DNA from: Dubosiella newyorkensis
GTDB taxonomy: Bacteria > Bacillota_I > Bacilli_A > Erysipelotrichales > Erysipelotrichaceae
Direction: 5' to 3'
NCBI RefSeq assembly: GCF_001945605.1
Contig: NZ_MPKA01000066.1
Coordinates: 1 to 22,588, forward strand
Length of the DNA: 22,588 nt
The position numbers and the translations under genes are program-made. Below are positions 1,506 through 18,023 of the stretch, piece after piece. A model generated the notes under the pieces. The model made no database searches and had not been told where the DNA came from. It was given only the letters and a program-made list of their open reading frames with translations. Every line of letters begins with the position of its first letter. The first letter of the stretch is position 1.

Positions 1506-1535
1506 AAAAAGATATCCGCGCGGATATCTTTTTTT
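1506..1535. terminator. bidirectional rho-independent terminator shared by the convergent msmK and isomerase operons
   Basis: Perfect 18-nt palindrome GATATCCGCGCGGATATC (1511-1528), flanked by an A5 run on the left and a T7 run on the right. Confidence 0.85.
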
Positions 1536-3264
1536 ATGCTTTTGGTTTTCGCACATAGGCGCGAATGACACCGATCGTTTTGTTCGTATTGTTGACGATC
1601 TTATAGTTTTTCACACTGGCTGGCACGATAAATGTTTCGGCATAGTGGACTTCGAACGGTTCAAAAGATCCATCCATGCTTTCGATCAGACAGCTTTGGC
1701 CCTCGATCAAATTGAGCATGTTCACATTGTCTTCGTTTTTGATAAGCACATCATCTTGGATCCAATAGCGTCTTGTTTCTATATATTCCAATTCATGAAG
1801 GCCTGTATGCTCTTCTTTGACATGCTCGTCTTCTTTGAGTGTATAGATCGCGTTGACAAGGTTCTTTTCGACCCAATGTGTTGTTCGATCCCATTGAATG
1901 TTTTTCTTTCCATGCTCGATATGGACTGGGCGTGGTTTTCCATCTAGTCCTACGCGCGCCCAATCCCAAAGCTTGAATGTAAAACAATACGGGGTGGCGC
2001 TGATTTCTAGGACCATCGCGTCTTTTCCAGAACAATGCGTCGTTCCTGCCGGGATCAAAAAGTGATCATGCTTTTTGGCTGGGAATTTATTGACATATTT
2101 TTCCGCGTCAAAAAGGATCTCTCCTCGATTGGCCGCTTCAAGGTCGGAAATCATTTCTTCAGGAACGACGCCTTCTTTCAAGCCAAGGTAGACACACGCG
2201 CCCTCTTTGGCATCAAGAATATAGTAGCTTTCATCTTGGGTATAGGCCATCCCGAACGTTCGATGAATGTATTCGGTGAGCGGATGGACTTGGAGCGAAA
2301 GATTTTGTCCGCCAATCGTATCAAGAAAGTCGAATCGGATCGGGAATTCAGCCCCAAAACGAGAATATACGCTCTTTCCTAAAAGGGCTTTTGGCTGATC
2401 GAGCACGAGATCCATGGCAGGCAGTTCGATATATCCATTTCCAAAATCGAGATAGATTGAATTTTCTTCAGGGACACCATCAAAACTCCAAGCGTAGTTT
2501 TCTTTGTCCGGGTCCAAGTTGCAGGCGCTCTTCATCCATTGTCCGCCCCAAACGCCTGGATCAAAATAAGGCACGAGCCGGAAAGGACGATGAGCCATTT
2601 GGATCAAGCCGTCTCGAACCGCTTTTCCAGACACCATTTTTATTTCGTTCATATCGTTGGTGTCGATGAAGTAATCGATTCGATCAAAGAACGTGCGTTT
2701 ATATTTGTCGGCGACACGCCATTCGATAAAGAAACCGCGCTTGATCTTTCTTAATGCGTCTTCGTCTTGGTTGTCGGCTAAAAAGTTGGGCATTCCTTGA
2801 CGATAGCGAAGGGTGATTTCCCAACGCGCTAAATCCAAATAGACAAGGAGTCCTTGGGCGATCAAATTGGCTCCGTAGCCATAGACAATGACTTTTTTTC
2901 CTTCTTGTCTAGCTTTCTGGGCTTGTTCTTGGAGCGCTTTTTTCTTGTCTTCCACGATGAAATTTTCGATTTCTCCATAATACATGCGTCCAAACACTCG
3001 ATCGTCGGTGATATGGTATTTTAATTGTTCATAGATCGTTTCTTGATCTTTGAACAGCTCGATCGCGTCGATCCATACATCGTGGGGGATCTTTTTGAGT
3101 TCGTGTTTTATTTCTTCATCATATACGCCTGGATACGTATCGATGACGAGGATGTCTTCCATCTTTTCTTGCAGTTGGGCAAGGATCGATTCCCAACCTT
3201 GGATAAGCTCTCCTTGGTGGCCTTCGATTTTTGTTTTTGGATATGGATCATATAAACTAGTCAT
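1534..3264 (-). CDS. class I mannose-6-phosphate isomerase family protein, long (~576 aa) form with an N-terminal extension domain
   Basis: 576-aa ORF with RBS AGGAGAAG upstream. It has a type I PMI-like zinc or catalytic motif LSLQVHP and IPAGTTHCSG...VLEISATP in the C-terminal two thirds. Its start overlaps the upstream cupin gene stop by 8 nt. Confidence 0.65.
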   Translation of the reverse strand: MTSLYDPYPKTKIEGHQGELIQGWESILAQLQEKMEDILVIDTYPGVYDEEIKHELKKIPHDVWIDAIELFKDQETIYEQLKYHITDDRVFGRMYYGEIENFIVEDKKKALQEQAQKARQEGKKVIVYGYGANLIAQGLLVYLDLARWEITLRYRQGMPNFLADNQDEDALRKIKRGFFIEWRVADKYKRTFFDRIDYFIDTNDMNEIKMVSGKAVRDGLIQMAHRPFRLVPYFDPGVWGGQWMKSACNLDPDKENYAWSFDGVPEENSIYLDFGNGYIELPAMDLVLDQPKALLGKSVYSRFGAEFPIRFDFLDTIGGQNLSLQVHPLTEYIHRTFGMAYTQDESYYILDAKEGACVYLGLKEGVVPEEMISDLEAANRGEILFDAEKYVNKFPAKKHDHFLIPAGTTHCSGKDAMVLEISATPYCFTFKLWDWARVGLDGKPRPVHIEHGKKNIQWDRTTHWVEKNLVNAIYTLKEDEHVKEEHTGLHELEYIETRRYWIQDDVLIKNEDNVNMLNLIEGQSCLIESMDGSFEPFEVHYAETFIVPASVKNYKIVNNTNKTIGVIRAYVRKPKA

Positions 3265-3814
3265 TTTTTCTTCTCCTAACGATTACTTCTCCATTTTCTT
3301 TATAGACCCGATACGGAAACGGGTGCTCTTCGATTCGTGCATAATCGTGTCCTGCGTTGGCAGGCCACACACAAATCACTTCAAGATCTTCGTTTCCAGT
3401 ATTGATGAGCCGGTGGGCGTGATGTCCATGAATATGATGAAGCGTGCCGACATGCATTTTTTCGCTCCAGCAATTTCCTTGCTCATCCATCAGCATCAAC
3501 AAACCTTCGCCTTTCGCACACCAATAGTATTCTTCGCAAGACAGATCATGATGGAAATGTCCTCGTGTCATATTGCATTCGCCATCGACCAAGACAGGAT
3601 GCAGCAAAGAAACGCCCCAATTGAGATGGCCAGCCGCTCCTTCAGGATCTAAAAAGGAAGTGACTTCGTACATACACGTATCGTTGGGCAATGTCGGATC
3701 GTAGGCTGCGTAAAAATCTTTCGCGTCTTGATAGAGTTTGATGGATTTCTGCATTTCCTTTCCGCACATTCCTTTTTCAAAGTCGTGAAACAAGGAAGAT
3801 TCGATGATGTTCAT
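3257..3814 (-). CDS. cupin-type (archaeal-type) glucose-6-phosphate isomerase, cPGI
   Basis: 185-aa ORF with RBS AAGGAGGG. The cupin metal motif TRGHFH...EEYYWCAKGEG...HGHHAHRLINTG and the tail WPANAGHDYARIEE...ENGEVIV align, from memory, block by block with Pyrococcus furiosus PGI (TKGHFH...EVYVALKGKG...PPYWAHRTVNIG...YPADAGHDYGTIAE...ENGEVKV). Confidence 0.85.
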   Translation of the reverse strand: MNIIESSLFHDFEKGMCGKEMQKSIKLYQDAKDFYAAYDPTLPNDTCMYEVTSFLDPEGAAGHLNWGVSLLHPVLVDGECNMTRGHFHHDLSCEEYYWCAKGEGLLMLMDEQGNCWSEKMHVGTLHHIHGHHAHRLINTGNEDLEVICVWPANAGHDYARIEEHPFPYRVYKENGEVIVRRRKND

Positions 3815-3851: not shown

Positions 3852-3880
3852 ATTATAGGAGTCAAAAAAAAATCCGTCAA
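3852..3880 (-). promoter_or_regulatory. sigma-A type promoter of the cPGI-PMI operon
   Basis: On the minus strand: TTGACG (3880-3875), a 17-nt spacer, then TATAAT (3857-3852). It lies about 38 nt upstream of the ATG at 3814. The -35 element overlaps the stop codon and terminator of the upstream methyltransferase gene. Confidence 0.55.
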
Positions 3881-3896
3881 CTCTTTTTGGCGGATT
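3864..3896 (-). terminator. probable rho-independent terminator of the rpoN/methyltransferase transcript
   Basis: On the minus strand the stem is AATCCG (3896-3891) with CGGATT (3876-3871). The loop is about 14 nt and contains the stop codon, and a T9 run follows (3872-3864). The stem is short, so confidence is moderate. Confidence 0.45.
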
Positions 3897-4413
3897 TGCG
3901 TTTTTCAATCAAAAAAAGATATGGACTATCTTTCTTTAAATAATTTGTGATTTTCTGGATCCCGTATTGACGCGGATCAAGCGTTTTTAAAAAGCGTTCA
4001 ATTTCTTGTTGTTCTAGAGGACTGTTTTCATGCGCGTATAGGACAAGGGAAAGTCGTCCTTTTGGCTTGAGTCTTTGGATTGTTTTTTGGATCGCCTCGA
4101 TGCTAGAGCTCGCTTGCGTCGTGATCGAAGGATCAAGTCCTGGACAATAGCCAAAGTTGAAAATCGCCGCGTCTAAAGGCTCTTTGATATATCGATCGAG
4201 ATGAGCATGCGAATCCAAGATCCAAACAAGAGAAGATGGAATCGTCTTAGGTTTTAATTCGGGCTGGATTTCAAAAGCGTAGATCTTCTTGACGGGCTGG
4301 TCTAGAAAAAACCGGGTATCGGATCCATTGCCATACGTTCCATCGAGCACGATCGCTTGTTTATGCATCGCTTCTTGTAAAAAAGCGTGCGAAAGTTCGA
4401 CCATTGTTTTCAT
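3877..4413 (-). CDS. mnmM: class I SAM-dependent methyltransferase of the MnmM/YtqB family (tRNA mnm5s2U34 methyltransferase-like)
   Basis: 178-aa ORF. The SAM motif VLDGTYGNGSDTRFF, IYAFEIQ and FNFGYCPGLDPSITT parallel the B. subtilis YtqB blocks (IDATMGNGHDT, VYAFDIQ, FNLGYLPGGDKSITT), recalled from memory. Confidence 0.72.
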   Translation of the reverse strand: MKTMVELSHAFLQEAMHKQAIVLDGTYGNGSDTRFFLDQPVKKIYAFEIQPELKPKTIPSSLVWILDSHAHLDRYIKEPLDAAIFNFGYCPGLDPSITTQASSSIEAIQKTIQRLKPKGRLSLVLYAHENSPLEQQEIERFLKTLDPRQYGIQKITNYLKKDSPYLFLIEKRKSAKKS

Positions 4414-4506
4414 TTATATTCCTCTGCCTAGAAATAGAATACACCAAAAAATAAATTTCATTCAATAAAACTCTGAATAATTCAATCCCGTATAAAAATC
4501 AGGTCA

Positions 4507-5703
4507 CTATTTTCTTCTCTTAGATGCACTCTCAATTCCCAAGATCTTTCTATATTTATTAATAGCTCTTCTTGAAACATACAATCCTAACTCTTCCAAT
4601 TGATCACATAGCTGCTGATCACTGAATGGTTTATGTGGATCTTCTTGTTCGATCAACGTTTGAATCGCCTTCAAGATGGAATCTTGACTCGTCCCGCCTT
4701 TTGTCTTTGAAACAAACAATCCTTTGATAGGATAAATATTCCCTTCAAATTGATAATACTTGTTGGAAAGTGTTCGAGATACCGTTGATTCATGAAATCC
4801 GCTCTTCTGTGCTATATCTTGTAAAGTACATGGTTCAAGTTCATCGTGAAACAAAAAATGATTTTTCTGGATCGAAATAATCTCATTCGCTAAAATGAGG
4901 AGCGTACGATTGCGTTTATTCATCGCATCCATAAAGAAATGGGCTTCTTGAAAATAAGATTTAAGATTTTTATTCTCTTTTGGGATGTTGAGAATTTGGA
5001 GTTGTCCTTGTTGAATTGGTTCTATGTAAACATCTGCCCCTTCGACATGGATCGTAAAATCAGGAATCAGTATTTCTTCTTTTTCAGTTGCCTCCTGCAA
5101 ATTCGGATAAAGAGAGCAAGCACGAATTTTATCTAATGCTTCTTCAATTTCTTTTAGCGTTGCCCCCTCTCTTCTTGCAATTTCTTTCCAAGAAAGCAGT
5201 TCTTTTCCTTGCCCATATTTTTTTAATAGATGAGATGCGAACGTTTCTTTCTTTCGATCAAGCTGTAGAATGATACACTCGCTTTGATTCCGAGCGGCTA
5301 TTCCTGCTGGATCTAGAGATTGAACTTGTTTGAGGGATCCTTTCCATCTATCTTCTGAGCAATTAAGGTAAGCTATGCTTTCTTCTTCTGAATCCATAAA
5401 CATTCCTTTTTCATTTAATGTTTCTATAATAAAACTACAGATCGTTGGATCGAATGTTTCTTCATTCGTATTCAACTGCCGATATAAGTCTTCTTTCCAA
5501 GAAACTGGCGCCGCAAATCCTTCTTCGATCCACTCATTGAGATCTTTACTTTGATGATATTCAATAAACGGATTTTGTTCACAAAGCTCTTTGATCGCAT
5601 CCTGCAATTGGGCTTCACTCATTCTTAAAACTTCTAAAGAACGTTGTTGAGAAAGCGACAATTGTTGAGTCTGTGTCTGTTTTTGAATCATTTTTTGGTG
5701 CAT
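4507..5703 (-). CDS. rpoN: RNA polymerase sigma-54 factor (RpoN/SigL), a short 398-aa form
   Basis: The Gln-rich region I reads MIQKQTQTQQLSLSQQRSLEVL. The C-terminal HTH is HESTVSRTLSNKY and the RpoN box is SRRAINKYRKILGI. RBS AAAGGAG lies 7 nt upstream. Confidence 0.92.
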   Translation of the reverse strand: MHQKMIQKQTQTQQLSLSQQRSLEVLRMSEAQLQDAIKELCEQNPFIEYHQSKDLNEWIEEGFAAPVSWKEDLYRQLNTNEETFDPTICSFIIETLNEKGMFMDSEEESIAYLNCSEDRWKGSLKQVQSLDPAGIAARNQSECIILQLDRKKETFASHLLKKYGQGKELLSWKEIARREGATLKEIEEALDKIRACSLYPNLQEATEKEEILIPDFTIHVEGADVYIEPIQQGQLQILNIPKENKNLKSYFQEAHFFMDAMNKRNRTLLILANEIISIQKNHFLFHDELEPCTLQDIAQKSGFHESTVSRTLSNKYYQFEGNIYPIKGLFVSKTKGGTSQDSILKAIQTLIEQEDPHKPFSDQQLCDQLEELGLYVSRRAINKYRKILGIESASKRRK

Positions 5704-5728
5704 AAAGATCTCCTTTCAATCTTATACT

Positions 5729-5744
5729 AGCAAGATTTGTGCCA
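5729..5744 (-). promoter_or_regulatory. sigma-54 (-24/-12) promoter immediately upstream of rpoN itself
   Basis: The minus strand reads TTGGCAC-AAATC-TTGCT-AGTATAAGATTGAAAGGAGATCTTTATG. GG is at 5743/5742 and GC at 5731/5730, with canonical TGGCAC-N5-TTGC spacing. It shares the extended TTGCTnGTATA....TGAA pattern with the two PTS promoters. The predicted TSS is near 5718, just ahead of the RBS. Confidence 0.7.
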
Positions 5745-5768
5745 ACTTTTTTAACCCTTTTTCTAAGT

Positions 5769-5797
5769 TTGACATCTATTTTTATTGCTTCTATACT
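5769..5797 (+). promoter_or_regulatory. sigma-A type promoter of the LevR-like activator gene
   Basis: Consensus TTGACA (5769-5774), a 17-nt spacer, then TATACT (5792-5797). RBS AGGTGA (5804-5809) and ATG 5815 follow directly, so the leader is very short. Confidence 0.65.
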
Positions 5798-5814
5798 CGA
5801 TTTAGGTGATTCAA

Positions 5815-8508
5815 ATGAAAGATACTTTATATAAAATGATCCACGCTTGGACAAGCGCAGAACGATTCGATGAGTTGACCATCGCTTCTCTTTCAAGTGC
5901 TTTATCGCTTCCAAAAAATAAAATTACGTTTTTTATGCAAGATCTGATCAAAGATGGAAAAATAGTCCGCATCGAAGAAAAGCCTCTTCGTTTTATGAGC
6001 AAAAAAGCACTGGAAGAACTATATGGAACGCCCGTTAATACGGATAAGATCCCTAGATTCGACGCTTGGCTAGCTTCTGTTCAAAAAGAACCAATGGATT
6101 TCGAAAAATTAGTCGGTTATGATGGCTCACTTGCTAGTTTAGTTGAACAATGTAAGGCGACGATCTCGTACCCACCTAGCGGTCTTCCCCTGATGCTAAC
6201 AGGAGAAACAGGAACAGGAAAAAGCTTTATCGCTCAATTGACATTTGAATACGCTAAGAATCATTCACTTTTAAAACCAGAAGGTCGTTTCGTTTCCATT
6301 AATTGTTCTGAATACGCAAATAACCCAGAATTATTAAGCGCCAATTTGTTTGGCTATGTTAAAGGAGCTTTTACAGGAGCCAATCAAGATACACCAGGAT
6401 TATTAGAACTGGCTGATGGAGGCGTTCTTTTTTTAGACGAAGTCCATAATTTAAAGGGGGAATGCCAAGAAAAGCTATTTCAATTTATGGATCAAGCCCT
6501 ATATCATCGAATGGGAGACAACAAAACTTGGTATTCTTCCCAAGTTCGTCTGATTTTTGCCACCACAGAAGATCCCAATCAAGTTCTTTTAAAAACATTA
6601 CAACGCCGTATCCCAATGCATTTAAAAGTCCCCACTCTTCTACAACGGGGATCTTTAGAAAAAATTCAAATGATCTATATGCTTTTCAAAAAGGAAGAAC
6701 AACGCCTTAAAAAGCGAATCAAGCTTTCACCTAGCTTCTTTCAATTGTTGCTTTCCTATCCATTTCCTGAAAATATTGGAGGATTAAAAAGCACGATCCA
6801 AGCATGCTGTGTGCAAGCCCTTTTTCAAATCGACGAAAAGGACGAAATGATGATCGAAGCTCATAATCTTCCTGCCACTATTCTAGAACATGCCTCGATC
6901 GATACGCTTTTGAAAATTCAAGACAGCGATTGGATTTATATTGATGAACTGGATCGTAATTTTAAAAATGAATATTCCACCACATTGCTTGAACAAAATG
7001 CGATTCATAAGCTTGCACAAACTGAGGATTTTCGAGAAGATGCACTTCATATCGCGAACGCTCTTTTCCAATCTTCAAATTCAAATAAGGCGAGCGCTTT
7101 CGAAAATGCCGCATTCACTTTGGTCGAAAAAATCACTCAGCACTATCATATGGCTGTCCTTAAACAAGAGAGTGATTCATTTCAGCATCAGCTTTTGTCG
7201 ATCCTTTCTTTACCGTTAAAGACTCGAATAGCACTAGAAAACAAAAAGCAAGAAATGGAAACGATCTTAGGACGTTTCAAAAACGAAGATTTCCGGATCT
7301 ATTCAGCTGTTTTAGAAATCCAAGAAACTTTAAAAAATACCCTCAATATTTCTATGGAGCCTATCCAAAATGTGTTACTAGGCCTTCTGTTTTTAAAAAC
7401 CTTCCCCACTCAAAGCATTCCAAAACGAATGGGGATTTTATTAGCGCATGGCCCTTCGAGTGCGAGCTCGATCGCAATTTGTGTAAATGAGTGGCTCGAA
7501 CAACATGTATTCGATGCGATCGATATGCCATACTTCATGTCGCAAGAACAATGTATAGAACAGCTCAATACCTATCTAAAAAAGATGGAAGGCATCGAAG
7601 AATTGTTTCTGCTCGTCGATCTTGGCTCTTTAGAAGAAGTTTGGAAAGGATTAAAGATCAAAAACGTCAATATTGGCATTATCAATACGCTTCATTTAAA
7701 GATGGCTCTTTCCATTGGCCAAGATCTCCTGAGTTCTAAAAGCATGGAAGATATCTTAGAAAAAGCAAAACAAGAAACGCGCGCTTCCTATCGGATCGAA
7801 TACAATAGGGAAAAGAAAAAATTGATCATCTGTTCTTGCGCGAGCGGAATGGGCGTAGCGGAAAAATTAAAAAGCGTAATTGTTGATTCTTTACCGAGCG
7901 AAAGCTCGATTGAAGTGCTCTCCTATGATTACAACTCTTTGCTTCAAAATGGAATCCATAATCCGAACTTTGAAAACTATGAAGTCTTGTGTGTCGTCGG
8001 CACTTTAAATCCAAATATTAAACACTTACATTTTATCGCCTTGGACGATTTGATTTTGCAAGAAAGCAATAACAGCCTCGATCAATATTTAGAGCCTTAT
8101 TTTTCAAACACAAAATTAGAAGAATTCAAGAAAAACATTATTAAGAATTTTTCGCTTTCCAATATCATGAATGCTTTAACAATTTTAAATCCTACAAAAT
8201 TGCTTGAACATGTCGCGGATGCGATCGACCGGCTCCAGAAAGAAATGCATCTTTCGTTGAGCAACAATACTTGTTTTGGTTTATATGTACATGTGAGTTG
8301 TTTAGTAGAGCGTCTTGTTATGAATCGAGGGATCGAATCATATCAAGATATCGGAGGTTTTCAAACCGAACAGAAAAACTTCATAGAACGAGTCAAGCGT
8401 TCCTTCAGCGATGTAGAAGCTTTTTATGGTGTTCAAATCCCTGTCGAAGAAATCGGATATATGTTCGATTACGTAAAAAACGATAAAAATTATCAAAAGT
8501 GTGTCTAA
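5815..8508 (+). CDS. levR: sigma-54-dependent, PTS-controlled transcriptional activator of the LevR family (HTH, AAA+, PRD, EIIA-Man-like, EIIB-Gat-like, PRD)
   Basis: The ORF-track model starts at GTG 5806. I prefer ATG 5815, which sits 5 nt after AGGTGA. Residues are numbered from the 5806 model. Walker A is GETGTGKS (133-140), the sigma-54 contact loop is GAFTGA (187-192) and Walker B is VLFLDE. The EIIA-Man-like domain has LLAHGPSS (His548), the EIIB-like domain has CSCASGMG (Cys678) and the C-terminal PRD motif is YVHVSCLVERL (His829). Confidence 0.9.
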   Translation: MKDTLYKMIHAWTSAERFDELTIASLSSALSLPKNKITFFMQDLIKDGKIVRIEEKPLRFMSKKALEELYGTPVNTDKIPRFDAWLASVQKEPMDFEKLVGYDGSLASLVEQCKATISYPPSGLPLMLTGETGTGKSFIAQLTFEYAKNHSLLKPEGRFVSINCSEYANNPELLSANLFGYVKGAFTGANQDTPGLLELADGGVLFLDEVHNLKGECQEKLFQFMDQALYHRMGDNKTWYSSQVRLIFATTEDPNQVLLKTLQRRIPMHLKVPTLLQRGSLEKIQMIYMLFKKEEQRLKKRIKLSPSFFQLLLSYPFPENIGGLKSTIQACCVQALFQIDEKDEMMIEAHNLPATILEHASIDTLLKIQDSDWIYIDELDRNFKNEYSTTLLEQNAIHKLAQTEDFREDALHIANALFQSSNSNKASAFENAAFTLVEKITQHYHMAVLKQESDSFQHQLLSILSLPLKTRIALENKKQEMETILGRFKNEDFRIYSAVLEIQETLKNTLNISMEPIQNVLLGLLFLKTFPTQSIPKRMGILLAHGPSSASSIAICVNEWLEQHVFDAIDMPYFMSQEQCIEQLNTYLKKMEGIEELFLLVDLGSLEEVWKGLKIKNVNIGIINTLHLKMALSIGQDLLSSKSMEDILEKAKQETRASYRIEYNREKKKLIICSCASGMGVAEKLKSVIVDSLPSESSIEVLSYDYNSLLQNGIHNPNFENYEVLCVVGTLNPNIKHLHFIALDDLILQESNNSLDQYLEPYFSNTKLEEFKKNIIKNFSLSNIMNALTILNPTKLLEHVADAIDRLQKEMHLSLSNNTCFGLYVHVSCLVERLVMNRGIESYQDIGGFQTEQKNFIERVKRSFSDVEAFYGVQIPVEEIGYMFDYVKNDKNYQKCV

Positions 8509-8510
8509 AT

Positions 8511-8526
8511 TGGCACACTTTTTGCT
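8511..8526 (+). promoter_or_regulatory. sigma-54 (-24/-12) promoter, distal copy (P1), starting 3 nt after the levR-like stop codon
   Basis: TGGCAC (8511-8516), ACTTT, TTGCT (8522-8526), with canonical spacing. Confidence 0.62.
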
Positions 8527-8583
8527 TGTATAGAAGTGAAGCGAATTCCAATACAAAAAAATATAAATCATAAACTCATTAGT

Positions 8584-8599
8584 TGGCACGCTTCTTGCT
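8584..8599 (+). promoter_or_regulatory. sigma-54 (-24/-12) promoter, proximal copy (P2) of the PTS operon
   Basis: TGGCAC (8584-8589), GCTTC, TTGCT (8595-8599). The predicted TSS is near 8610, followed by RBS AAAGGAGG (8623-8630) and ATG 8636. Confidence 0.75.
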
Positions 8600-8635
8600 T
8601 GTATAGAAATGAATAATTTAAAGAAAGGAGGTTCT

Positions 8636-9064
8636 ATGCGGCATATTATTTTAGCTTCTCATGGCGACTTTTCAAAAGGTCTGAAGCATTCTGTGCAGAT
8701 GATTGTTGGCGATATTGCCGACCAATTGCAAACATATTCGCTCTATCCGTCTTATAATCCTCGCGATTATATGGAAGAAATGAGTGCTCTCATCCAAAAG
8801 AACCCTGAGGACGAATATGTTTTTCTTTGTGATATTGAAGGTGGGAGTGTACATAGCGCGCTTTCTACATTGTGTCAATTCCCAAATGTTCTTGTATTTG
8901 GGGGAACAAATATGAATCTCGTGCTCGATTTACTATTATCGACACCAGAAATACTTATTAACAATCCTGATGTCCAAAATCGGTTGATCGCTTCCGGAAA
9001 AAATGGCGTAAGCTTAACGGATCAAAAAAGGATCCAACAAAAAAGCGAAGAAGAAGATTTCTAA
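8636..9064 (+). CDS. PTS mannose/fructose/sorbose-family EIIA component
   Basis: I take the start at MRHIILASHGDF because of the strong RBS. The track start at 8609 would lie inside the promoter. The phosphorylatable His is in the ASHG motif and a DIEGGS motif is present. The protein is about 142 aa. Confidence 0.85.
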   Translation: MRHIILASHGDFSKGLKHSVQMIVGDIADQLQTYSLYPSYNPRDYMEEMSALIQKNPEDEYVFLCDIEGGSVHSALSTLCQFPNVLVFGGTNMNLVLDLLLSTPEILINNPDVQNRLIASGKNGVSLTDQKRIQQKSEEEDF

Positions 9065-9079
9065 AGAAGGAGGAAAAAT

Positions 9080-9550
9080 ATGATTAAAAAACTTAGAGTC
9101 GATCATCGACTACTGCATGGACAAGTTGCTTTTTCGTGGACGAGCGCTCTGAATGCTGATTGCATTTTGATTGCCAACGATTCAGTCGTGAACGACGAAC
9201 TTCGAAAAACTACGATGAAAATGGCTAAACCAAATGGAGTGAAGCTTGTAATCAAAAATATTGCCGACAGCATTCAAGCGATCAACAGCGGCAAAACTGA
9301 CAAATATAAATTATTTATTGTGGTGGAGAGCATCAAAGACGCTCAGAAACTTATCAACGGCGTGGATCAAATCAAAAGTTTGAATCTAGGTGGTACAAAA
9401 GCAACTGAACAAACTCGCAACATTTCAAAAGCAATGAATATCACAAATGAAGAAGAGACGATTCTTAAAGATCTTGTGAATAAAGGTGTAGATGTAACGA
9501 TCCAAATGGTCCCTGAAGACACAGCCATTCCTGTAGAAAAGGTTTTATAA
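9080..9550 (+). CDS. PTS mannose/fructose/sorbose-family EIIB component
   Basis: The N-terminal RVDHRLLHGQVA motif matches the RIDxRLIHGQ phospho-His signature. RBS is GAAGGAGG. 156 aa. Confidence 0.9.
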   Translation: MIKKLRVDHRLLHGQVAFSWTSALNADCILIANDSVVNDELRKTTMKMAKPNGVKLVIKNIADSIQAINSGKTDKYKLFIVVESIKDAQKLINGVDQIKSLNLGGTKATEQTRNISKAMNITNEEETILKDLVNKGVDVTIQMVPEDTAIPVEKVL

Positions 9551-9559
9551 GGTGAGAGT

Positions 9560-10345
9560 ATGTTAATTCAATCAATTTTACTTGGCCTAGTGGCAATGCT
9601 TGGAAATGCCGAATATCTTTTAGGAACTTGTTTGCTTTCTCGCCCTATGATCATGGGCTTATTTACTGGAATTGTAATGGGAAACATTGAAATGGGCGTG
9701 AAGATCGGAGCAACGATGGAACTTGCTTTCATGGGTGCTTTCTCGATCGGGGCTAGTATTCCTCCAGAAATGATTTCTGGAACAGTGCTGGGCACCGCTT
9801 TTGCGATTACTACTGGATCTGGTGCTGAAACAGCCCTTGCGATCGGTCTTCCTGTCGCTTCGCTTGTTCTCTTGGCAAAAAACTTCGGCATGGTCTTCAT
9901 CTTGCCTCCATTTGTTCATAAAGCGGATGAATACGCAAGCAAAGATAATATGCAAGGTGTTGCCCTTGTTCATTATCTCGCCGGATTCTTTGGTGTCAAC
10001 TTGATTATTGGTCTTTGTGTAGGAATTGGCTATTATATGGGATCTCCAGCGATTGAAGCTTTCTTGTCGATCATTCCTGAATGGATCTCTAAAGGACTTG
10101 AAATCACGATGGGCTTACTTCCTGCAATCGGTTTTGGTTTGTTAATGAAAATGATCATGAATAAATCAAATATTTGCTTCTTTATTTTAGGATTTGGACT
10201 TTCTGTCTATTTGAATTTGCCTGGTACTGGAATTGCTGTTTTCGGAGCGATCATAGCGATCGTATTGACACAAATCAAGCGTTCTCAACAATTACAACCA
10301 GCAATGAATGTGGAAGGAGGATTAGATGATGACGACGACTTCTAA
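9560..10345 (+). CDS. PTS mannose/fructose/sorbose-family EIIC membrane component
   Basis: 261-aa polytopic hydrophobic protein in the canonical position after EIIB. It has an acidic C-terminal tail, GGLDDDDDF. Confidence 0.88.
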   Translation: MLIQSILLGLVAMLGNAEYLLGTCLLSRPMIMGLFTGIVMGNIEMGVKIGATMELAFMGAFSIGASIPPEMISGTVLGTAFAITTGSGAETALAIGLPVASLVLLAKNFGMVFILPPFVHKADEYASKDNMQGVALVHYLAGFFGVNLIIGLCVGIGYYMGSPAIEAFLSIIPEWISKGLEITMGLLPAIGFGLLMKMIMNKSNICFFILGFGLSVYLNLPGTGIAVFGAIIAIVLTQIKRSQQLQPAMNVEGGLDDDDDF

Positions 10346-11147
10346 AAAACTTGAAAGAAAACAAATTATGTCTGTATTCTGGCGCTCGTTCGGATTGGAA
10401 TGGGATTGGAACTATGAGCGACAGATGAATATTGGATATTGCTACTGCATGTTGCCGGTTATCAAAAAGTTATACCCAGACCCTGCGCAACAAGAAGCAG
10501 CTATGAAACGACATTTAGAATTCTTCAATACAACACCTCAGCTCGCTACCTTGATTCTTGGTATCACAGCCGCTATGGAAGAGCAAAACGCGAACGATCC
10601 TGGCTTCGATACACAATCGATTAATGATGTCAAAGTTTCTTTAATGGGACCTCTTGCAGGTATTGGTGACTCGTTTATTTGGGGAACTCTCCGTATCATT
10701 GCGACTGGTGTTGGTTTATCTCTTGCAACACAAGGTAATGTTCTTGGTCCTATCTTATTTTTCTTGATCTTTAATATTCCTGCTCAAGGTCTTCGCTACT
10801 ATTTAATGAATGCCGGTTATAAATTAGGAAGCGGTTTTTTAGCACAACTTCAAAAAAGTGGTTGGATGGAAATGTTGACATATGGTGCTTCTGTTCTGGG
10901 ATTGATTGTAATTGGAGGAATGACTGCACAAAATGTCGCGATCAATATTCCGCTTGTCATCGGTGCTGGTGAAGAAGCGACAACGATCGGAGATATTTGT
11001 AATCAAATCATGCCAGGTATTCTGCCATTGCTGTTTACATTCGCAATCTATTATGTGTTGAAATTTAAAAATGTCAAAACAACAACTTTATTGATCGTAT
11101 TTATCTTGATTGGTTTTATTGGTGCTTATTTTGGAATTTTAGGATAG
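10326..11147 (+). CDS. PTS mannose/fructose/sorbose-family EIID membrane component
   Basis: The N-terminal motif FWRSFGLEWDWNYERQMN is characteristic of IID (RS..LQ.SWNYERMQ). The gene overlaps the EIIC 3' end by 20 nt, and its RBS GGAGGA lies inside EIIC. Confidence 0.9.
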   Translation: MMTTTSKKLERKQIMSVFWRSFGLEWDWNYERQMNIGYCYCMLPVIKKLYPDPAQQEAAMKRHLEFFNTTPQLATLILGITAAMEEQNANDPGFDTQSINDVKVSLMGPLAGIGDSFIWGTLRIIATGVGLSLATQGNVLGPILFFLIFNIPAQGLRYYLMNAGYKLGSGFLAQLQKSGWMEMLTYGASVLGLIVIGGMTAQNVAINIPLVIGAGEEATTIGDICNQIMPGILPLLFTFAIYYVLKFKNVKTTTLLIVFILIGFIGAYFGILG

Positions 11148-11166
11148 ATAAAAGGAGGAAAATACT

Positions 11167-12162
11167 ATGATGAAATTCAATGAAAAGGAAAAAGTGGAAA
11201 GTGTACAAGGAGCTTTAGCTCTACGTCCAGAAATCGAATCGATTGTTGATGGGATTTGCAAAGACGGGTACAAAAATATCGTTTGGCTTGGTATTGGAGG
11301 AACGTGGGCAAGCTCACAACAAGCAACTGTACATATGAAAGAACGGTCGGGTATCGAAACTTGGGCAGAAAATGCAGCTGAATATCTCACAACAGGAAAT
11401 AAAAGAATCGGAAAAGGAAGCATTGTAATCACTTCTTCAGTAACTGGAAATACGATCGAAGTCGTTGAAGCAGTCAAAAAAGCCAAAGAAGCAGGTGCTA
11501 CAGTAATCGGATTCATTGATGCGCCTGAAGCTGAACTCGCTAAAATGGTCGATCATGTCATTTCATATAAGCAAAATGAGCAATTAAAATTCTTTATGGT
11601 AGCTGATCGTTTCATGAAAAATGCTGGTGAATTCGATGACTATGAAGAAATGTATGCAGAATTTGATCAATATTTGCCACAAGCGCTTGTAGAAGTAGAA
11701 AAAGCAGCAGAACCTTTCGCAGCAGAATTCGCAAAGCAGCATTGGAACGATGATATTCACTACTTTGTTGGTGCAGGAAATCAGTGGGGTGCTACTTACT
11801 CTTATGCGATGTGCTATTGGGAAGAGCAACTTTGGATCAAAACAAAGTCAATCACATCCCCAGAATTTTTCCATGGAATGTTTGAAATCGTGACAAAAGA
11901 AACTCCAGTAACCGTTTATATCGGCGAAGATAAGCAACGTCCGCTTTCTGAACGTGTAGCGAACTTCTTGCCTAGAATTTGCGGCAACTATACGATCATC
12001 GACACGAAAGACTATGAACTAAAAGGGATCAGCGAAAAATATCGTGGAGATATCTCTCATCTAGTCATGCACGCAGTCAACAACAGAATCGATGTTCATA
12101 TGGAAGATGAAACAAAACACCCAATGGAGATCCGTCGATATTATAGAGCTCTTGATTACTAG
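11167..12162 (+). CDS. SIS-domain protein, FrlB/GfrF-like fructosamine-6-phosphate deglycase family
   Basis: 331 aa. SIS motifs are present (VWLGIGGTW...SSVTGNT) together with an EFFHGMFE motif. The C-terminal tail EIRRYYRALDY resembles the E. coli FrlB tail (ERRYYGGLVEY), recalled from memory. RBS is AAAGGAGG. Confidence 0.72.
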   Translation: MMKFNEKEKVESVQGALALRPEIESIVDGICKDGYKNIVWLGIGGTWASSQQATVHMKERSGIETWAENAAEYLTTGNKRIGKGSIVITSSVTGNTIEVVEAVKKAKEAGATVIGFIDAPEAELAKMVDHVISYKQNEQLKFFMVADRFMKNAGEFDDYEEMYAEFDQYLPQALVEVEKAAEPFAAEFAKQHWNDDIHYFVGAGNQWGATYSYAMCYWEEQLWIKTKSITSPEFFHGMFEIVTKETPVTVYIGEDKQRPLSERVANFLPRICGNYTIIDTKDYELKGISEKYRGDISHLVMHAVNNRIDVHMEDETKHPMEIRRYYRALDY

Positions 12163-12170
12163 GAGAATAA

Positions 12171-13238
12171 ATGGATATGACGATGGAAGATTATATTCAA
12201 CAAAGTCGAGCTGCTTGTGAACAATTGCTTCACGATCATAACTTGCTTGAGCCTGTTGTTGAACTTTATCAAAAACAAAAGCCTGAAACGATTTGGCTAG
12301 TGGCTTCAGGCTCCAGTTATAATGCTTGTGTTTGCGCACAAGCGTTGATGAATCAGTGGATGGATACAGATGTGGAAGTTCGTACCCCATTCACCTTCCT
12401 TCATTATACACCGTCTTTAAAAAAGAATGATTTGATCTTCGTGATCACACAAAGTGGCTTATCGACCAACGCGATCGAAGTGCTCGATGCTTTACAAGGA
12501 AACCAAAATGTAATTTGCTTGACCGGAAACAAAAACAGCGACGTGAAAGATCATACGGAAATAGTTCTCGAATATGGTGTGGGTGAAGAACTTGTAGGAT
12601 ATGTGACAAAAGGCGTTAGTGTATTGACCTTTTATTTGATTTGTTTCGCTAAACAAGTAACGAATAAAGAAAACATTGACCTGCTTAAAGTATTATCTAC
12701 ATTCGAATATACACAAACAGAAACAGAACAATTTATTAGGAAACATTTCAAATCTCTTTCTGGAATGCAAACCGTATATTGTCTAGGAACGCCTTATTCA
12801 CAAGGGGTGGGCTTAGAAGCTGCCTTAAAAATCGGAGAAACGATCCATGTGCCAAGCTTCTACTATGAAGTTGAAGAATTTATTCATGGACCTAACCTTC
12901 AACTGAAGCCAACCTATACGCTCTTCTTTTTTGATAGCAACGATAGAGCCTCCTCTCGTCTTCATCAAATTTATGAAAGCGCGAAGCTCGTAAGCGATCA
13001 TGTCTATTTGGTTACGATGGATCCTGCTTTTAAAGAGGATGCTCACGCTCTTGTGATCGAACCAGCCGTCGACCCGCTCTTCAGCTCGTTTGTAGAATTA
13101 CCATTTCCGCAACTGATTAGCGCAAAGATCAGCACGATCTTACATAGCACAATGCAGCATCCTCTACTAAAAGAATTTAAAAAAGGAGCTGCCGCAAAAA
13201 CTGAAAACTTCATCAATTACGATAACGATGAGGCATAA
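12171..13238 (+). CDS. second SIS-domain sugar-phosphate isomerase or deglycase (GlmS isomerase-domain, AgaS or GfrE-like)
   Basis: 355 aa. It carries WLVASGSSYNA, ITQSGLSTN and EFIHGP motifs typical of tandem-SIS aminosugar-phosphate enzymes. It is clearly divergent from the first SIS gene. Confidence 0.7.
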   Translation: MDMTMEDYIQQSRAACEQLLHDHNLLEPVVELYQKQKPETIWLVASGSSYNACVCAQALMNQWMDTDVEVRTPFTFLHYTPSLKKNDLIFVITQSGLSTNAIEVLDALQGNQNVICLTGNKNSDVKDHTEIVLEYGVGEELVGYVTKGVSVLTFYLICFAKQVTNKENIDLLKVLSTFEYTQTETEQFIRKHFKSLSGMQTVYCLGTPYSQGVGLEAALKIGETIHVPSFYYEVEEFIHGPNLQLKPTYTLFFFDSNDRASSRLHQIYESAKLVSDHVYLVTMDPAFKEDAHALVIEPAVDPLFSSFVELPFPQLISAKISTILHSTMQHPLLKEFKKGAAAKTENFINYDNDEA

Positions 13239-13246
13239 TATAAAAA

Positions 13247-13281
13247 CGCAAAAGCAAAAAATAAGCTTTTGCGTTTTTTTA
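13247..13281. terminator. rho-independent terminator ending the PTS/SIS operon (bidirectional potential)
   Basis: The stem is ACGCAAAAGC (13247-13256) with GCTTTTGCGT (13266-13275). The loop is 9 nt and a T7 run follows. An A-run on the left side could serve the convergent macro-domain transcript. Confidence 0.88.
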
Positions 13282-13406
13282 TTAAGACAGCTTCCGCTTC
13301 TTCAAAAACTTAGTGTTCATGGAAACTTGTTTGAACGTGCTAAAGGATGCGATTCTAATGATCGATCCATTCTACTTAGAGGAAGGAAAAACCGAGATTC
13401 CTTTTT

Positions 13407-14844: not shown

Positions 14845-16166
14845 GAAGAGTGATTCCTTCTTTCTAAATAAGAGAGTAGATCGGCACGATTGTTTTTTTC
14901 CGGATGATAGAATGCATGATCGAGCGCCTCTTTAAGCAAGTTTCCAATTTGATGGTCCAGAACGCCCAACGCATTTTTAATATCGTTTCCATTGATTGCC
15001 AGATCTTTCAAAGAAAGAGGCCGCTCTTTTTTTTCTTTTTCGTAAAAGGCGACCGTTTCCTTTAAAAGATCCAGTCTTTTTTGTCCTTTTTGCGAATGAG
15101 CCATGATATCGCCATATTGAACCAAAAAAAATTTATGGATCCATTCATCGCTCATTCCAAGCTGGATCCGATATTTATAAAGCCATTTCAAGCTGGGCGC
15201 TCGCACATCATCATGATAGAGCACGAGCGTTTCGATCATTTTTTGGGTTTTCTTCGGCATTTTGAGCGCTTTGACCACTCTTCTAGCAATTTGAGCGCTC
15301 ACTTTTGGATGCCCTTTAAAATGATCGAGTCCATGCGTGTCGGTTGTTTTGGTGCTAGGTTTTCCTAGATCATGAAGAAGCAAGGCCCAAGCCGCCTCTT
15401 GATCATAGGTTGGTAAATATTGAAGCGCCTGGAGCGTATGGTCGAGCACGTTAGTCGTATGATAAATAGAATGCTGAGAACATGAAACGCATTCTTTTAA
15501 TTCCGGGATCCATGGCTCGAGCAAGTCAAGCATGTTCCGAATCTGGATCGGATCCGTTTTTAAGATCAAATCAAGTTCGGGAACGATACGCTCGACCGCC
15601 ACGTTCTTGATCAAATCCGCGTTTTCATGAATCGCTTCGCGTGTTTTTTCTTCGATCTGAAAATGCAGAACGGCCGCGAATCGGTGGGCTCTGATCATTC
15701 GCAAAGCGTCTTCTTGAAAGCGGAGAGAAGGATCTCCGATCGCCCGAATGATATGATCATGAAGGTCTTTTTGTCCTCCCGTCACATCCACGATCCCCTT
15801 TTTAGGATGATAGGCGAGCGCGTTGATCGTAAAGTCGCGTCGGAGCAGATCCTCAGAAAGCGATGAAACATAATCGATATGATCGGGATGCCGGTTGTCG
15901 GAATACCCTTTTTCTTTTCGATACGTCGTGCATTCAACAGACTGTCCCGCTTCTAAGATCGTGATCGTTCCATGCAGAATACCCGTGGGGATCGTATGGG
16001 AAAAGAGCGATTGGACTTGTATAGGCAAAGCGTTGGTGCAAAGATCATAATCATGGATCGGACGAGAAAGAAGAAAGTCGCGCACGCAGCCACCCACAAG
16101 ATAGCTTTCATAGCCAGCCTTTTCAAATGTGTCCAATATCGTTTGGATATACGATGGAATTTGCAT
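14841..16166 (-). CDS. cca: CCA-adding tRNA nucleotidyltransferase with C-terminal HD domain
   Basis: The Pol-beta NTase motif is YLVGGCVRDFLL...DYDL and the HD motif is LLHDLGKP. I take the start at MQIPSY (16166), 4 nt after AAAGGAGAA. The track start at 16202 is an upstream extension. Confidence 0.85.
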   Translation of the reverse strand: MQIPSYIQTILDTFEKAGYESYLVGGCVRDFLLSRPIHDYDLCTNALPIQVQSLFSHTIPTGILHGTITILEAGQSVECTTYRKEKGYSDNRHPDHIDYVSSLSEDLLRRDFTINALAYHPKKGIVDVTGGQKDLHDHIIRAIGDPSLRFQEDALRMIRAHRFAAVLHFQIEEKTREAIHENADLIKNVAVERIVPELDLILKTDPIQIRNMLDLLEPWIPELKECVSCSQHSIYHTTNVLDHTLQALQYLPTYDQEAAWALLLHDLGKPSTKTTDTHGLDHFKGHPKVSAQIARRVVKALKMPKKTQKMIETLVLYHDDVRAPSLKWLYKYRIQLGMSDEWIHKFFLVQYGDIMAHSQKGQKRLDLLKETVAFYEKEKKERPLSLKDLAINGNDIKNALGVLDHQIGNLLKEALDHAFYHPEKNNRADLLSYLERRNHSS

Positions 16167-16278: not shown

Positions 16279-17058
16279 TTACTTGAACGAGATATCCACG
16301 TTCCCCATATTCGTATATGCTTCGATCCTTGCCAAGCCTTCATACTTTGCATCATGATCATGGCCATGATCAACATCGACTTCGCCCATATCTGTATCGG
16401 CATCGATCGTATACTCCTCTCTTCCGCCTTGAAGCGCAAGATCAATATTTCCCATCGCGTTATTGGCTTTCAGAAATTCTTTCACTTGTCCATCGAACTC
16501 CAGATCGCCCATCGACAAATATAAGCTTCCGTTTGCGATCGTGCTTTCATTGACTTCCACATTCCCTAACTGGCAAGTCACATCAAGATCTTGCAGATCG
16601 ACCTTGCGAATTTGAACATCGCCCATCGCCGTCTCGATTCGAATAGCACGAATAGAAGAAGGAACCACAACCTTCATCGAAACATTCAAGTTTTGAAACG
16701 TAAAATGATTATCCGAAGTTTGTTCGATTTTATACTCTTTTCCATGAACGCTCGAATTCAAATGGATCTCCTTTGATTTTTGATTCATTTCCGGCATGTT
16801 TTCTGTTTCGATTTTAAAAGCGTCTCCACGCTCGATCTCAATATGCGCCATCGCCACATCTAAAACTAAAGTATCGATATTTTCTTTTGGCTCGTACGTA
16901 TATTCTTTCCCTTGAAATGGATTTTCGTCTATAGACACCTTTCCAAAATTTGTATATCTAAACAACATATCGCCACGACGCTGATACGCGATCGAACATA
17001 GACCCAATCCAAGCACGAGTGAAACGATCCCAACGATCAACAATCCTTTGTGTTTCAT
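16279..17058 (-). CDS. DUF4097-family membrane-anchored beta-repeat protein (LiaG/YvlB-like putative adhesin fold)
   Basis: It has an N-terminal TM anchor (LLIVGIVSLVLGLGLCSIA). At least seven repeats of a (M/L)G(D/N/E)-hydrophobic-x-hydrophobic rung motif follow: MGDVQI, LGNVEV, MGDLEF, MGNIDL, MGEVDV, MGNVDI. A His-rich patch DHGHDHD is also present. Confidence 0.7.
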   Translation of the reverse strand: MKHKGLLIVGIVSLVLGLGLCSIAYQRRGDMLFRYTNFGKVSIDENPFQGKEYTYEPKENIDTLVLDVAMAHIEIERGDAFKIETENMPEMNQKSKEIHLNSSVHGKEYKIEQTSDNHFTFQNLNVSMKVVVPSSIRAIRIETAMGDVQIRKVDLQDLDVTCQLGNVEVNESTIANGSLYLSMGDLEFDGQVKEFLKANNAMGNIDLALQGGREEYTIDADTDMGEVDVDHGHDHDAKYEGLARIEAYTNMGNVDISFK

Positions 17059-17672
17059 TCTCTAACCTCCCGATTTCTAAGCTTCCGATAAAGTTTGGCG
17101 ACCCAACGCGACAAAGCCGGAAAGCCAACTTTGATGATCCAGCCAATCGCAAGACAAGCCAAGATCGCCGCCCCAAACGCCGTCAATACGACACCCAACA
17201 AAAATAAAGAAACCATCAAATCTTGACCCAATGTCGAGAAGAATTCGAAAATACACAATCCTACCGTTATGATGGCACCTACCAGAGCCATCACAAACAC
17301 CAAAAGGATCATCGCCAAAGTGATCACTCCCACAAAAATCAGAACGATCACTACGATCAAAAGCGGCAAAGCGATCGGCAAAGCACAAATCCCAAGCACC
17401 AAGATCCCCAACGTTTTCCATACACTATTTTGAGAAGCAGGACGCGCTTGCATTTGACGAGGGATCCGAGGAGGGACACTCGCCACAAGATCAGCCCGAA
17501 TTGTCGCCGCATACTTTTCTGGCGAACCCAATTCTTCGATCACCTTCTGTTCGTTTTCTACCCCTGCTTCTTCAAAATATTCATTCAAATACACGATCGC
17601 ATCCGAGAGGTCGCGGGGATCGACGCCCGAAAGCTGCGAATGAACGATCTGAATATATTCTTGTTTAGTCAT
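17055..17672 (-). CDS. DUF1700 (HAAS-type) membrane protein partnered with PadR
   Basis: The soluble N-terminal helical domain reads MTKQEYIQIV...LNEYFEEAG...LGSPEKYA. Several TM helices follow. The gene has an 8-nt overlap with padR and a 4-nt overlap with the DUF4097 gene. Confidence 0.7.
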   Translation of the reverse strand: MTKQEYIQIVHSQLSGVDPRDLSDAIVYLNEYFEEAGVENEQKVIEELGSPEKYAATIRADLVASVPPRIPRQMQARPASQNSVWKTLGILVLGICALPIALPLLIVVIVLIFVGVITLAMILLVFVMALVGAIITVGLCIFEFFSTLGQDLMVSLFLLGVVLTAFGAAILACLAIGWIIKVGFPALSRWVAKLYRKLRNREVRE

Positions 17673-17982: not shown

Positions 17983-18000
17983 AATATTATCTCCTTTACC

Positions 18001-18023
18001 AATATTATACATAATATAATATT
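18001..18023. promoter_or_regulatory. inverted repeat in the padR promoter region, a candidate PadR operator
   Basis: AATATTATA-CATAA-TATAATATT has perfect 9-bp arms. Each arm contains a TATAAT on one strand, and the repeat lies about 20 nt upstream of the padR start codon. Confidence 0.4.

Follow-up and report, generated by a model that had tools for sequence, protein, structure and literature searches.

Can a sigma-54 gene be drawn into the control circuit of a single operon? The question is raised by a 22.6-kb stretch of chromosomal DNA of Dubosiella newyorkensis (Erysipelotrichaceae), hereafter the window, on both strands of which motifs were counted. In it, rpoN, the gene for sigma-54, is divergent from levR, a gene for a LevR-type bacterial enhancer-binding protein (bEBP, or EBP), and downstream of levR lie the EIIA-B-C-D genes of a mannose-family phosphotransferase system (PTS) and two SIS genes, followed by a terminator. 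An earlier note on this DNA had described this six-gene PTS-SIS operon with its strong terminator, and Pfam searches and hairpin folding bear out its gene content and orientation; the note had also suggested that the sigma factor may be dedicated to, and possibly transferable with, the operon. In teaching, sigma-54 is usually presented as constitutive and chromosome-wide, with its many activators as the sole source of specificity. Here, the gene for the factor stays linked to a single activator and a single target operon throughout a whole bacterial family, and in a large subclade the sigma gene also stands behind what appears to be its own kind of promoter. We lean, with moderate confidence, towards reading the locus as an old Gfr-like module of the Erysipelotrichaceae in which the control circuit of the operon has come to include the sigma-54 gene, with positive feedback.

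The rpoN promoter and the linkage of rpoN to levR

The divergent genes, their promoters and the two promoters of the operon are located as follows (aa, amino acids):

4507..5703, minus strand: rpoN, encoding sigma-54 of 398 aa (Pfam Sigma54_AID, CBD and DBD; RpoN box)
5714..5745, minus strand: sigma-54-type promoter of rpoN, TTGGCAC-N5-TTGCTAGTATAAGATTGAA (exact motif match)
5769..5797, plus strand: sigma-A-type promoter of levR, TTGACA-17-TATACT (11/12 consensus positions)
5815..8508, plus strand: levR/gfrR-type bEBP gene, 897 aa (AAA+ with GAFTGA and a C-terminal PRD, by Pfam)
8510..8540, plus strand: distal sigma-54 promoter of the PTS operon, P1 (exact motif; 31-nt repeat D2)
8583..8613, plus strand: proximal sigma-54 promoter of the PTS operon, P2 (exact motif; 31-nt repeat)

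The minus-strand site, whose position directly 5' of rpoN is a point beyond the earlier note, reads TTGGCACAAATCTTGCTAGTATAAGATTGAAAGGAGATCTTTATG, i.e., the -24/-12 element, then a Shine-Dalgarno sequence and then the rpoN start codon. Because this site lies directly upstream of rpoN, the gene is predicted to have a sigma-54-type promoter of its own. The -24 GG is about 40 nt 5' of the rpoN ATG, and the geometry, with a short leader carrying the Shine-Dalgarno sequence, is that of the proximal promoter of the operon. The rpoN promoter may overlap a weak sigma-A extended -10 (TGCTAGTAT) in the window, and it stands back to back with the strong sigma-A-type promoter of levR, whose TTGAC element and spacing to the rpoN -24 element are kept across lineages. 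E. coli glmY is a precedent for a sigma-54 promoter overlapping a sigma-70-type -10, and in the Pr/Ps region of xylR/xylS on the TOL plasmid a sigma-54 promoter is back to back with the sigma-70 promoter of its own activator gene; unlike here, the gene under the sigma-54 promoter in these cases is not the sigma factor itself.

As the earlier note had held, all exact TGGCAC-N5-TTGC sites of the window fall within the block: there are three, at 5744-5730 (-), 8511-8525 (+) and 8584-8598 (+), against a chance expectation of 0.03, and none of 100 shuffles gave three. Allowing one mismatch added only two sites, both within EIIC (0.96 expected). The three exact sites sit 40-125 nt 5' of rpoN or EIIA in the correct orientation with canonical spacing, and they are kept at orthologous positions. 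The extended form of the motif is real and shared, as noted before, but it is not particular to this cassette: the -12 to +5 consensus of the operon promoters, TTGCT(T/G)GTAT(A/G)GAAGTGAAG, was also found in Lacticaseibacillus and Pediococcus plasmid cassettes, and the extended motif is therefore a family-wide feature.

Contigs with sigma-54 relatives at 70, 48, 47, 43, 42, 39 and 36% identity have rpoN divergent from a levR-type gene that is followed by a mannose-family PTS operon; their outer flanks are otherwise different. A profile scan with the clade alignment, using one genome per species, yielded 80 rpoN loci (D. newyorkensis is not among them). A levR homologue and PTS genes are beside rpoN in 17/17 species genomes of the Erysipelotrichaceae clade, plus 7 metagenomic lineages; the members include OPF54, Dubosiella muris, Faecalibaculum, [Eubacterium] hominis, Breznakia, Faecalitalea, MTC7, Longicatena, Floccifex, Ileibacterium and Stoquefichus. 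The 63 outgroup loci (from Clostridia, Listeria and others) all lacked a LevR homologue with PTS genes at distances of up to 10 kb from rpoN. Based on this comparison of gene order, the linkage is judged not to be fortuitous, and the absence of the adjacency from close relatives, which the earlier note had named as evidence against a dedicated cassette, was not observed.

The sigma-54 proteins of these loci form a monophyletic clade in a crude neighbour-joining tree. Their length is 396-423 aa throughout the clade, which makes the 398 aa that had been singled out as a special mark of the cassette a clade trait; short length as a sign of specialisation was accordingly rejected. The sigma-54 of Aquifex is of similar length. 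In lineages L024 and L025, rpoN is split by a frameshift (10001-11219; 341 + 55 aa), as it apparently also is in L049 (10001-11184); the PTS genes of L024 are in fragments, and L020 has both levR and EIID split (4045-4863, 6959-9699). These broken genes could mean that the module is decaying in some lineages, or they could be errors of assembly.

We call group A those clade lineages that have a -24/-12 site before rpoN (10 of the species genomes) and group B those that do not. The site lies 39-52 nt before the start of the rpoN match in 9 of the 17 species genomes and at 87 nt in L031, and it is also present in the window and in every metagenomic lineage of group A (at ~137 nt in L020). As compiled, 18/18 group-A lineages have an equivalent site before rpoN, against 0/63 outgroup loci. 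The rpoN and PTS promoters differ systematically, since the former are mostly TGGCAT and carry TTGCTA in 9/13 cases vs 3/27 for the latter. In a computational, class-level survey of 2025 (PMC12316311), several classes, Erysipelotrichia among them, were described as enriched in sigma-54-type promoters upstream of rpoN; the survey also cites documented cases in Geobacter and Dokdonia. As here, the survey's -24/-12 promoter upstream of rpoN implies autoregulation; unlike here, its statement is made for whole classes and comes with no locus anatomy, no levR/PTS linkage and no proposed activator.

The proposed circuit and competing accounts

In the circuit that we propose, LevR would be made from its sigma-A promoter and, when no substrate is present, would be kept inactive through phosphorylation of PRD2 by the cognate EII, by analogy with the LevR family (PMC4987338). 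In the presence of substrate, this PTS inhibition via PRD phosphorylation would cease, and LevR hexamers would open P1, P2 and the rpoN promoter. Induction would raise sigma-54 itself, in a substrate-gated positive feedback, and sigma-54 would become an inducible, largely operon-private factor. With rpoN behind a sigma-54 promoter, the supply of sigma-54 would depend on an activator. In four lineages, the -12 element of rpoN continues as TGCTATAAT, a perfect extended -10, and in the window it continues as TGCTAGTAT; this suggests an overlapping weak sigma-A promoter, from which basal sigma-54 would probably be supplied. The module would still rely on the EI, HPr and core RNA polymerase of the host.

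Several observations weigh against this circuit. As the only promoter of rpoN, a sigma-54 promoter would create a bootstrapping problem, and the overlapping sigma-A -10 is good in only 4-7/13 lineages. The seven group-B lineages (Faecalitalea, Floccifex, Ileibacterium, Stoquefichus and three metagenome-assembled genomes) keep the linkage with the rpoN -24/-12 site absent, and their rpoN-levR intergenic regions are short and AT-rich; autoregulation is therefore not required for the module to work. Because these lineages are nested among the others in the tree, the sigma-54 element of rpoN appears to have been lost or gained more than once. The weakest point of the proposed mechanism is the absent binding site for LevR (upstream activating sequence, UAS): no candidate was found among 10-mers shared, with at most one mismatch, upstream of the rpoN and PTS promoters of 12 lineages, and no repeated 8-mer, a search prompted by an AGTGTTT array on an L. 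paracasei plasmid, was consistent across lineages. The distance from the levR -35 to the rpoN -24 is only ~21-24 bp, so a UAS for rpoN would have to fall in the promoter or coding sequence of levR or else work over a distance of 2.7 kb. The substrate of the operon is assigned on moderate homology, below NCBIfam equivalog cutoffs. Finally, a supplement table gives Faecalibaculum rodentium 3 EBPs, Longicatena 7 and C. innocuum 13, the latter two with two rpoN genes each (PMC12316311); sigma-54 is therefore not private in every clade member.

One further candidate for the LevR site, GTATAGAAG, which is shared by P1 and the levR -10 region, was rejected, as it is conserved only in its TATAC hexamer.

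The failure to find a UAS near rpoN, together with the almost complete lack of room between the divergent promoters, is also what would be expected if rpoN were subject to negative autoregulation only. Under that account, a closed complex of sigma-54 holoenzyme at -24/-12 would block the overlapping sigma-A promoter, LevR would never activate the site, and sigma-54 would be held at a set level. The overlap of the -12 element with TGCTATAAT in four lineages, and with TGCTAGTAT or TATAAT-like sequences in others, agrees with it as well. Negative autoregulation of rpoN via promoter-overlapping sigma-54 sites has been reported in some proteobacteria. We nevertheless consider it improbable at this locus: the distance of the rpoN site to the Shine-Dalgarno sequence and ATG equals that of the operon's proximal promoter, every group-A lineage keeps the full -24/-12 consensus, even where the -10 is poor (L029, L038, L049 and L020), and no -35 element accompanies the rpoN-side -10 in the window. 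Moreover, the activator gene is immediately adjacent, which is the usual place of bEBP targets (PMC6615313).

The EBP counts given above would suit another account, in which sigma-54 is an ordinary multi-regulon factor, its adjacency to levR is conserved synteny that signifies nothing functionally, and the genome holds further bEBPs and -24/-12 promoters at other places; the recognised -24/-12 consensus, which is fully canonical, fits such a factor too. However, those counts are inflated and serve as upper bounds only: L. plantarum is credited with 7 (PMC12316311), against one EBP in the analysis of Francke et al. (PMC3162934), and genomes without rpoN are given 1. In the same supplement, rpoN is present in only 6/11 genomes of the class Erysipelotrichia, and Faecalitalea, in which rpoN adjoins levR, has 1 rpoN and 1 EBP (PMC12316311). 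A sigma-54-type rpoN promoter, moreover, would tie the supply of sigma-54 to an activator.

The rate of divergence also bears on this account. Sigma-54 has the highest nonsynonymous divergence (dN) of the eight cassette genes, with 0.216 against 0.034 for EIID in the comparison with OPF54 and 0.487 against 0.046 in the comparison with D. muris. Between the orthologous loci of L022 and L038, sigma-54 is 43% identical, while LevR is 69% and the flanks are 58-79% identical. Based on these values, sigma-54 appears to behave like a lightly constrained, locally used factor; divergence faster than that of LevR and the flanks is unexpected for a factor that serves many promoters. Taken with the points above, this leaves us regarding a multi-regulon sigma-54 as rather unlikely, if still a serious contender.

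It is plausible that the sigma-54 regulon of D. newyorkensis consists of this one only, i.e., that the sigma factor is dedicated. In a homologue search with LevR, the best 120 matches were all orthologues, 41-99% identical, and any paralogues would rank below them.

The positive-feedback circuit can be taken further. Tentatively, and as a possibility that we hold to be short of probable, sigma-54 in one branch of the Erysipelotrichaceae may have come to resemble an extracytoplasmic function (ECF) sigma factor, with a self-amplifying rpoN-levR platform, swapped PTS cargos, faster sigma evolution and an independent parallel in Lacticaseibacillus. If this were true, LevR would drive transcription of the adjacent rpoN from a sigma-54 promoter; the cargos exchanged would be the gfr type with two SIS enzymes, the BtpA/HAD type and single-SIS types; sigma-54, freed from many promoters, would evolve faster than its neighbours; and a plasmid-borne rpoN would make a sigma-54-dependent operon functional in hosts with no sigma-54 of their own. 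The locus would offer a natural minimal three-part sigma-54 circuit, as a model for how positive feedback is started and shut off and for sigma-promoter co-evolution when few promoters constrain the factor. It is also relevant to the entry of sigma-54-dependent operons into hosts without the factor, as in the case of the Lacticaseibacillus plasmid described below.

Age and mobility of the locus

A recently acquired, horizontally transferable island with its own sigma factor would explain the GC content of the block (4500-13300), which is 0.36-0.41 against 0.42-0.47 in the flanks and is the sole hint toward acquisition in the window. In addition, most lineages have different flanking genes, a plasmid-borne analogue exists in L. 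paracasei, and in L. rhamnosus the presence of rpoN and of a PRD-domain regulator with the neighbouring accession number differs between strains (PMC7513527, PMC3954586). Against this, the window contains no integrase, transposase or relaxase genes, and no tRNA target or boundary repeats were found at the block, where the only flank-to-flank match is that of terminator T-runs. Even towards the closest species, synonymous divergence is saturated, with proportions of synonymous differences (pS) of 0.65-0.9 in all cassette genes. On the same values, we rejected the idea that the 94-96% identity of EIID and SIS1 stems from recent transfer or recombination; this identity therefore reflects constraint.

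The gene pair that flanks rpoN encodes a 576-aa protein and a GPI-cupin protein (window 1534-3814, minus strand) and recurs at a distance of 3-5 kb from rpoN in Longicatena and the OM02-2AC lineage (L022 14263-16559; L038 14026-16331; L049 14259-16543). The two proteins are 63% and 48-54% identical, far better conserved than sigma-54 itself. The cassette is present on 24/24 contigs that bear the exact flanking Macro protein, and no empty site was seen in the species. A search among plasmids yielded no copy of the cassette; the best plasmid match of sigma-54 is 32% identical, and those of LevR are ~31% identical. Together with the monophyly of the sigma-54 clade, these results make an island very improbable, and we do not sustain the transferability that had been suggested for the cassette. 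As judged from its sequence context, it is best described as an old, vertically inherited chromosomal module that is not mobile.

The 576-aa protein has no solid Pfam match (a weak one to PMI type I, E = 0.005), and the pair may be either an ancestral neighbour or a functionally linked pair of sugar isomerases. In some D. newyorkensis assemblies, insertion sequences (IS) are found near the locus: a DDE transposase lies between ABC ATPase and YhfC genes in L002 (15793-17604), and a transposase HTH fragment follows directly after the end of SIS2 in L005 (149-436), at the contig edge.

The L022 and L038 loci share orthologous levR genes and flanks but carry different cargo, of the BtpA/HAD type and the gfr type with two SIS enzymes, and the PTS cargo therefore seems modular over long times. 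In this pair, the gene after rpoN, for an EAL-domain protein, is also very divergent (31%).

A transferable sigma-54 cassette is realised elsewhere, on the mobilizable L. paracasei plasmid p1CACC566 (NZ_CP048004.1, L107 10968-19843), where a bEBP gene, rpoN and a dga-like mannose-PTS operon are flanked by IS5 and IS30. As here, rpoN is divergent from a 2.8-kb gene for a sigma-54-interacting regulator and adjoins a mannose-family PTS operon with a -24/-12 promoter, which shares the TTGCT.(A/G)TATA...GTGAAG extension with the cassette described here. Unlike here, rpoN is co-directional with and upstream of the operon, no -24/-12 site precedes it, and the enzymes are DgaE and KDGP aldolase. The sigma-54 of the plasmid is only 27.5% identical to that of D. 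newyorkensis, and its cassette is therefore of independent origin. Just upstream of its sigma-54 promoter (15239-15335), five AGTGT(T/C)T-type repeats spaced ~21 bp apart are likely an activator binding array.

The PTS operon and its known relatives

The remaining features of the block, all on the plus strand, are listed below:

8495..8527, plus strand: intrinsic terminator hairpin of levR (-14.2 kcal/mol, z = -4.84; U-run behind it)
8636..9064, plus strand: EIIA of the mannose family, 142 aa (Pfam EIIA-man, PF03610)
9080..9550, plus strand: EIIB of the sorbose/mannose family (Pfam PTSIIB_sorb, PF03830, 1e-49)
9560..10345, plus strand: EIIC (Pfam EII-Sor, PF03609, 2e-65)
10326..11147, plus strand: EIID (Pfam EIID-AGA, PF03613, 7e-106)
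11167..12162, plus strand: SIS enzyme 1 (SIS1), FrlB/GfrF-like putative sugar-amine-6-phosphate deglycase (PDB and NCBIfam matches)
12171..13238, plus strand: SIS enzyme 2 (SIS2), GlmS-C/NagB-II-like, putative second deglycase or isomerase (two Pfam SIS stretches)
13236..13284, plus strand: intrinsic terminator at the operon end (-24.3 kcal/mol, z = -5.2; inverted repeat I4, 95% complementary)

P1 and P2, in the interval from levR to EIIA, are the two copies of a direct repeat of 31 nt; they lie 73 bp apart and are 90% identical. A start of the PTS operon from a sigma-A promoter had been named beforehand as evidence against dedication; sigma-54-type promoters are predicted at this position, and no good sigma-A promoter for the operon was found. 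The number of operon promoter copies varies by lineage, with one, two or, in Faecalibaculum, four. In the latter (L014 6590-7180; L029 4850-5260), four tandem sigma-54 promoter units of ~90-107 bp each precede EIIA; a degenerate promoter remnant follows directly after the levR stop and is itself followed by a ~230-bp insert with a small called open reading frame.

P1 begins 3 nt past the levR stop codon. In the levR hairpin, the stop codon is in the loop, the 5' arm consists of the last LevR codons and the 3' arm of the -24 element and spacer of P1, so that the levR terminator appears to be fused to the operon promoter. The hairpin is kept, with covarying arms, in five other lineages (L027, L028, L032, L034 and L036), and a Pediococcus plasmid LevR cassette has the same hairpin design. 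The terminator at the operon end, with its A-run and T-run, is likely bidirectional. Downstream of rpoN (4414-4506, minus strand) there is no convincing terminator (fold z = 0.36), and rpoN transcription may therefore run on into the rRNA methylase gene at 3877-4413.

The rpoN product has all three sigma-54 domains (PF00309, 1.8e-8; PF04963, 1.2e-29; PF04552, 3e-38) and the RpoN box SRRAINKYR at residue 377, and it aligns to the sigma-54 structures of Aquifex and Klebsiella. Its score is below the equivalog cutoff of NCBIfam TIGR02395 (259.6 bits vs 277.35), and it is therefore a divergent member of the family, with most of region II missing. The 398-aa product is 100% identical to NCBI proteins named sigma-54 of D. 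newyorkensis, and the same locus with the same neighbours occurs in hundreds of public contigs. Among the sigma-54 matches labelled D. newyorkensis, identity is never below 91%, which suggests that the species has a single rpoN.

LevR has a Sigma54_activat AAA+ domain (PF00158, 8.7e-39), with the Walker A motif GETGTGKS at residue 130 and the GAFTGA loop at residue 184, and one copy of the PRD, by Pfam, at residues 806-890; a PF03610 match is present in some of its orthologues. Its best NCBIfam match, below cutoff, is DagR, the D-glucosaminate regulator, and the Breznakia orthologue is annotated as 'regulator of gfr operon'. The start of levR is most likely ATG 5815 rather than 5806 (897 vs up to 900 aa), and that of EIIA is most likely ATG 8636 (142 aa, with AAAGGAGG before it), not 8609. 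Both are the starts called in public assemblies, and each is preceded by a good ribosome-binding site.

The PTS has separate EIIA, EIIB, EIIC and EIID components, as is characteristic of mannose-family permeases, and two SIS-family deglycase-like proteins are encoded after EIID, as in Gfr operons. SIS1 matches PDB 2a3n (1e-53), 8glr (9e-53) and 3eua, a 'fructose-aminoacid-6-phosphate deglycase' (3e-34), and its best NCBIfam match, below cutoff, is fructoselysine-6-P deglycase. SIS2 matches PDB 2aml (5e-31) and isomerase domains of the GlmS-C/NagB-II type, and it too stays below the NCBIfam equivalog cutoffs. Gene order and content match gfrABCDEF with GfrR, and we infer that the operon serves the uptake and deglycation of sugar-amines of the fructoselysine/glucoselysine type. 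It would be a probable route for the use of Maillard-type sugar-amines by abundant mouse-gut Erysipelotrichaceae (Dubosiella and Faecalibaculum); in Salmonella, fructoselysine use is described as mattering for gut competition (PMC12675984).

The GfrR-gfrABCDEF system is known from Salmonella (PMC4987338) and has been reconstructed for Clostridium and Clostridioides (PMC6615313). Like the locus described here, it combines a LevR-type bEBP with a C-terminal PRD, EIIA-B-C-D with two SIS enzymes, and a -24/-12 promoter. Unlike here, where rpoN is the divergent neighbour with its own candidate sigma-54 promoter and the operon promoters are in tandem, rpoN is unlinked and serves many bEBPs; the substrate of the D. 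newyorkensis operon, for its part, is assigned by homology below NCBIfam cutoffs. Within the GfrR/LevR sigma-54 PTS systems, the distinguishing features of the present one are the clade-wide rpoN linkage, the sigma-54-type rpoN promoter and the fast-evolving sigma-54.

The LevR/levanase system of B. subtilis also has an AAA+ GAFTGA activator controlled by the PTS through PRDs (PMC4987338), and its activator gene is likewise directly upstream of a sigma-54-promoted mannose-family PTS operon; however, its sigL gene maps to another part of the chromosome and is used by several activators. L. plantarum, with its single EBP, is similar in that one activator, ManR, has essentially one target, the mannose PTS, which makes its sigma-54 functionally dedicated (Stevens et al. 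2010, as cited in PMC3162934). In the description given there, with which alone the comparison is made, neither rpoN beside the EBP gene nor a sigma-54 promoter on rpoN is mentioned. Plasmids of Enterococcus and Pediococcus commonly carry LevR-PTS cassettes that lack rpoN. The conjugative plasmid CP021472.1 of Pediococcus pentosaceus (L108 6973-15242), for example, carries a gfr-like FrlB-LevR-EIIABCD-FrlB-PgmB cassette with no rpoN, and a hairpin at the end of its levR (10846-10880) overlaps the -24 element.

An Rfam scan found no RNA family in the leaders or near the block, and its only hit was at the window edge, where the last 86 bases (22503-22588, minus strand) score 51 bits against the 3' end of bacterial 23S rRNA (RF02541), which places an rRNA operon directly next to the window. 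Three further genes at 16279-18012 (minus strand) encode a PadR-family regulator, a HAAS-domain protein and a DUF4097 'toastrack' protein, a putative recurring stress-sensing module unrelated to the cassette.

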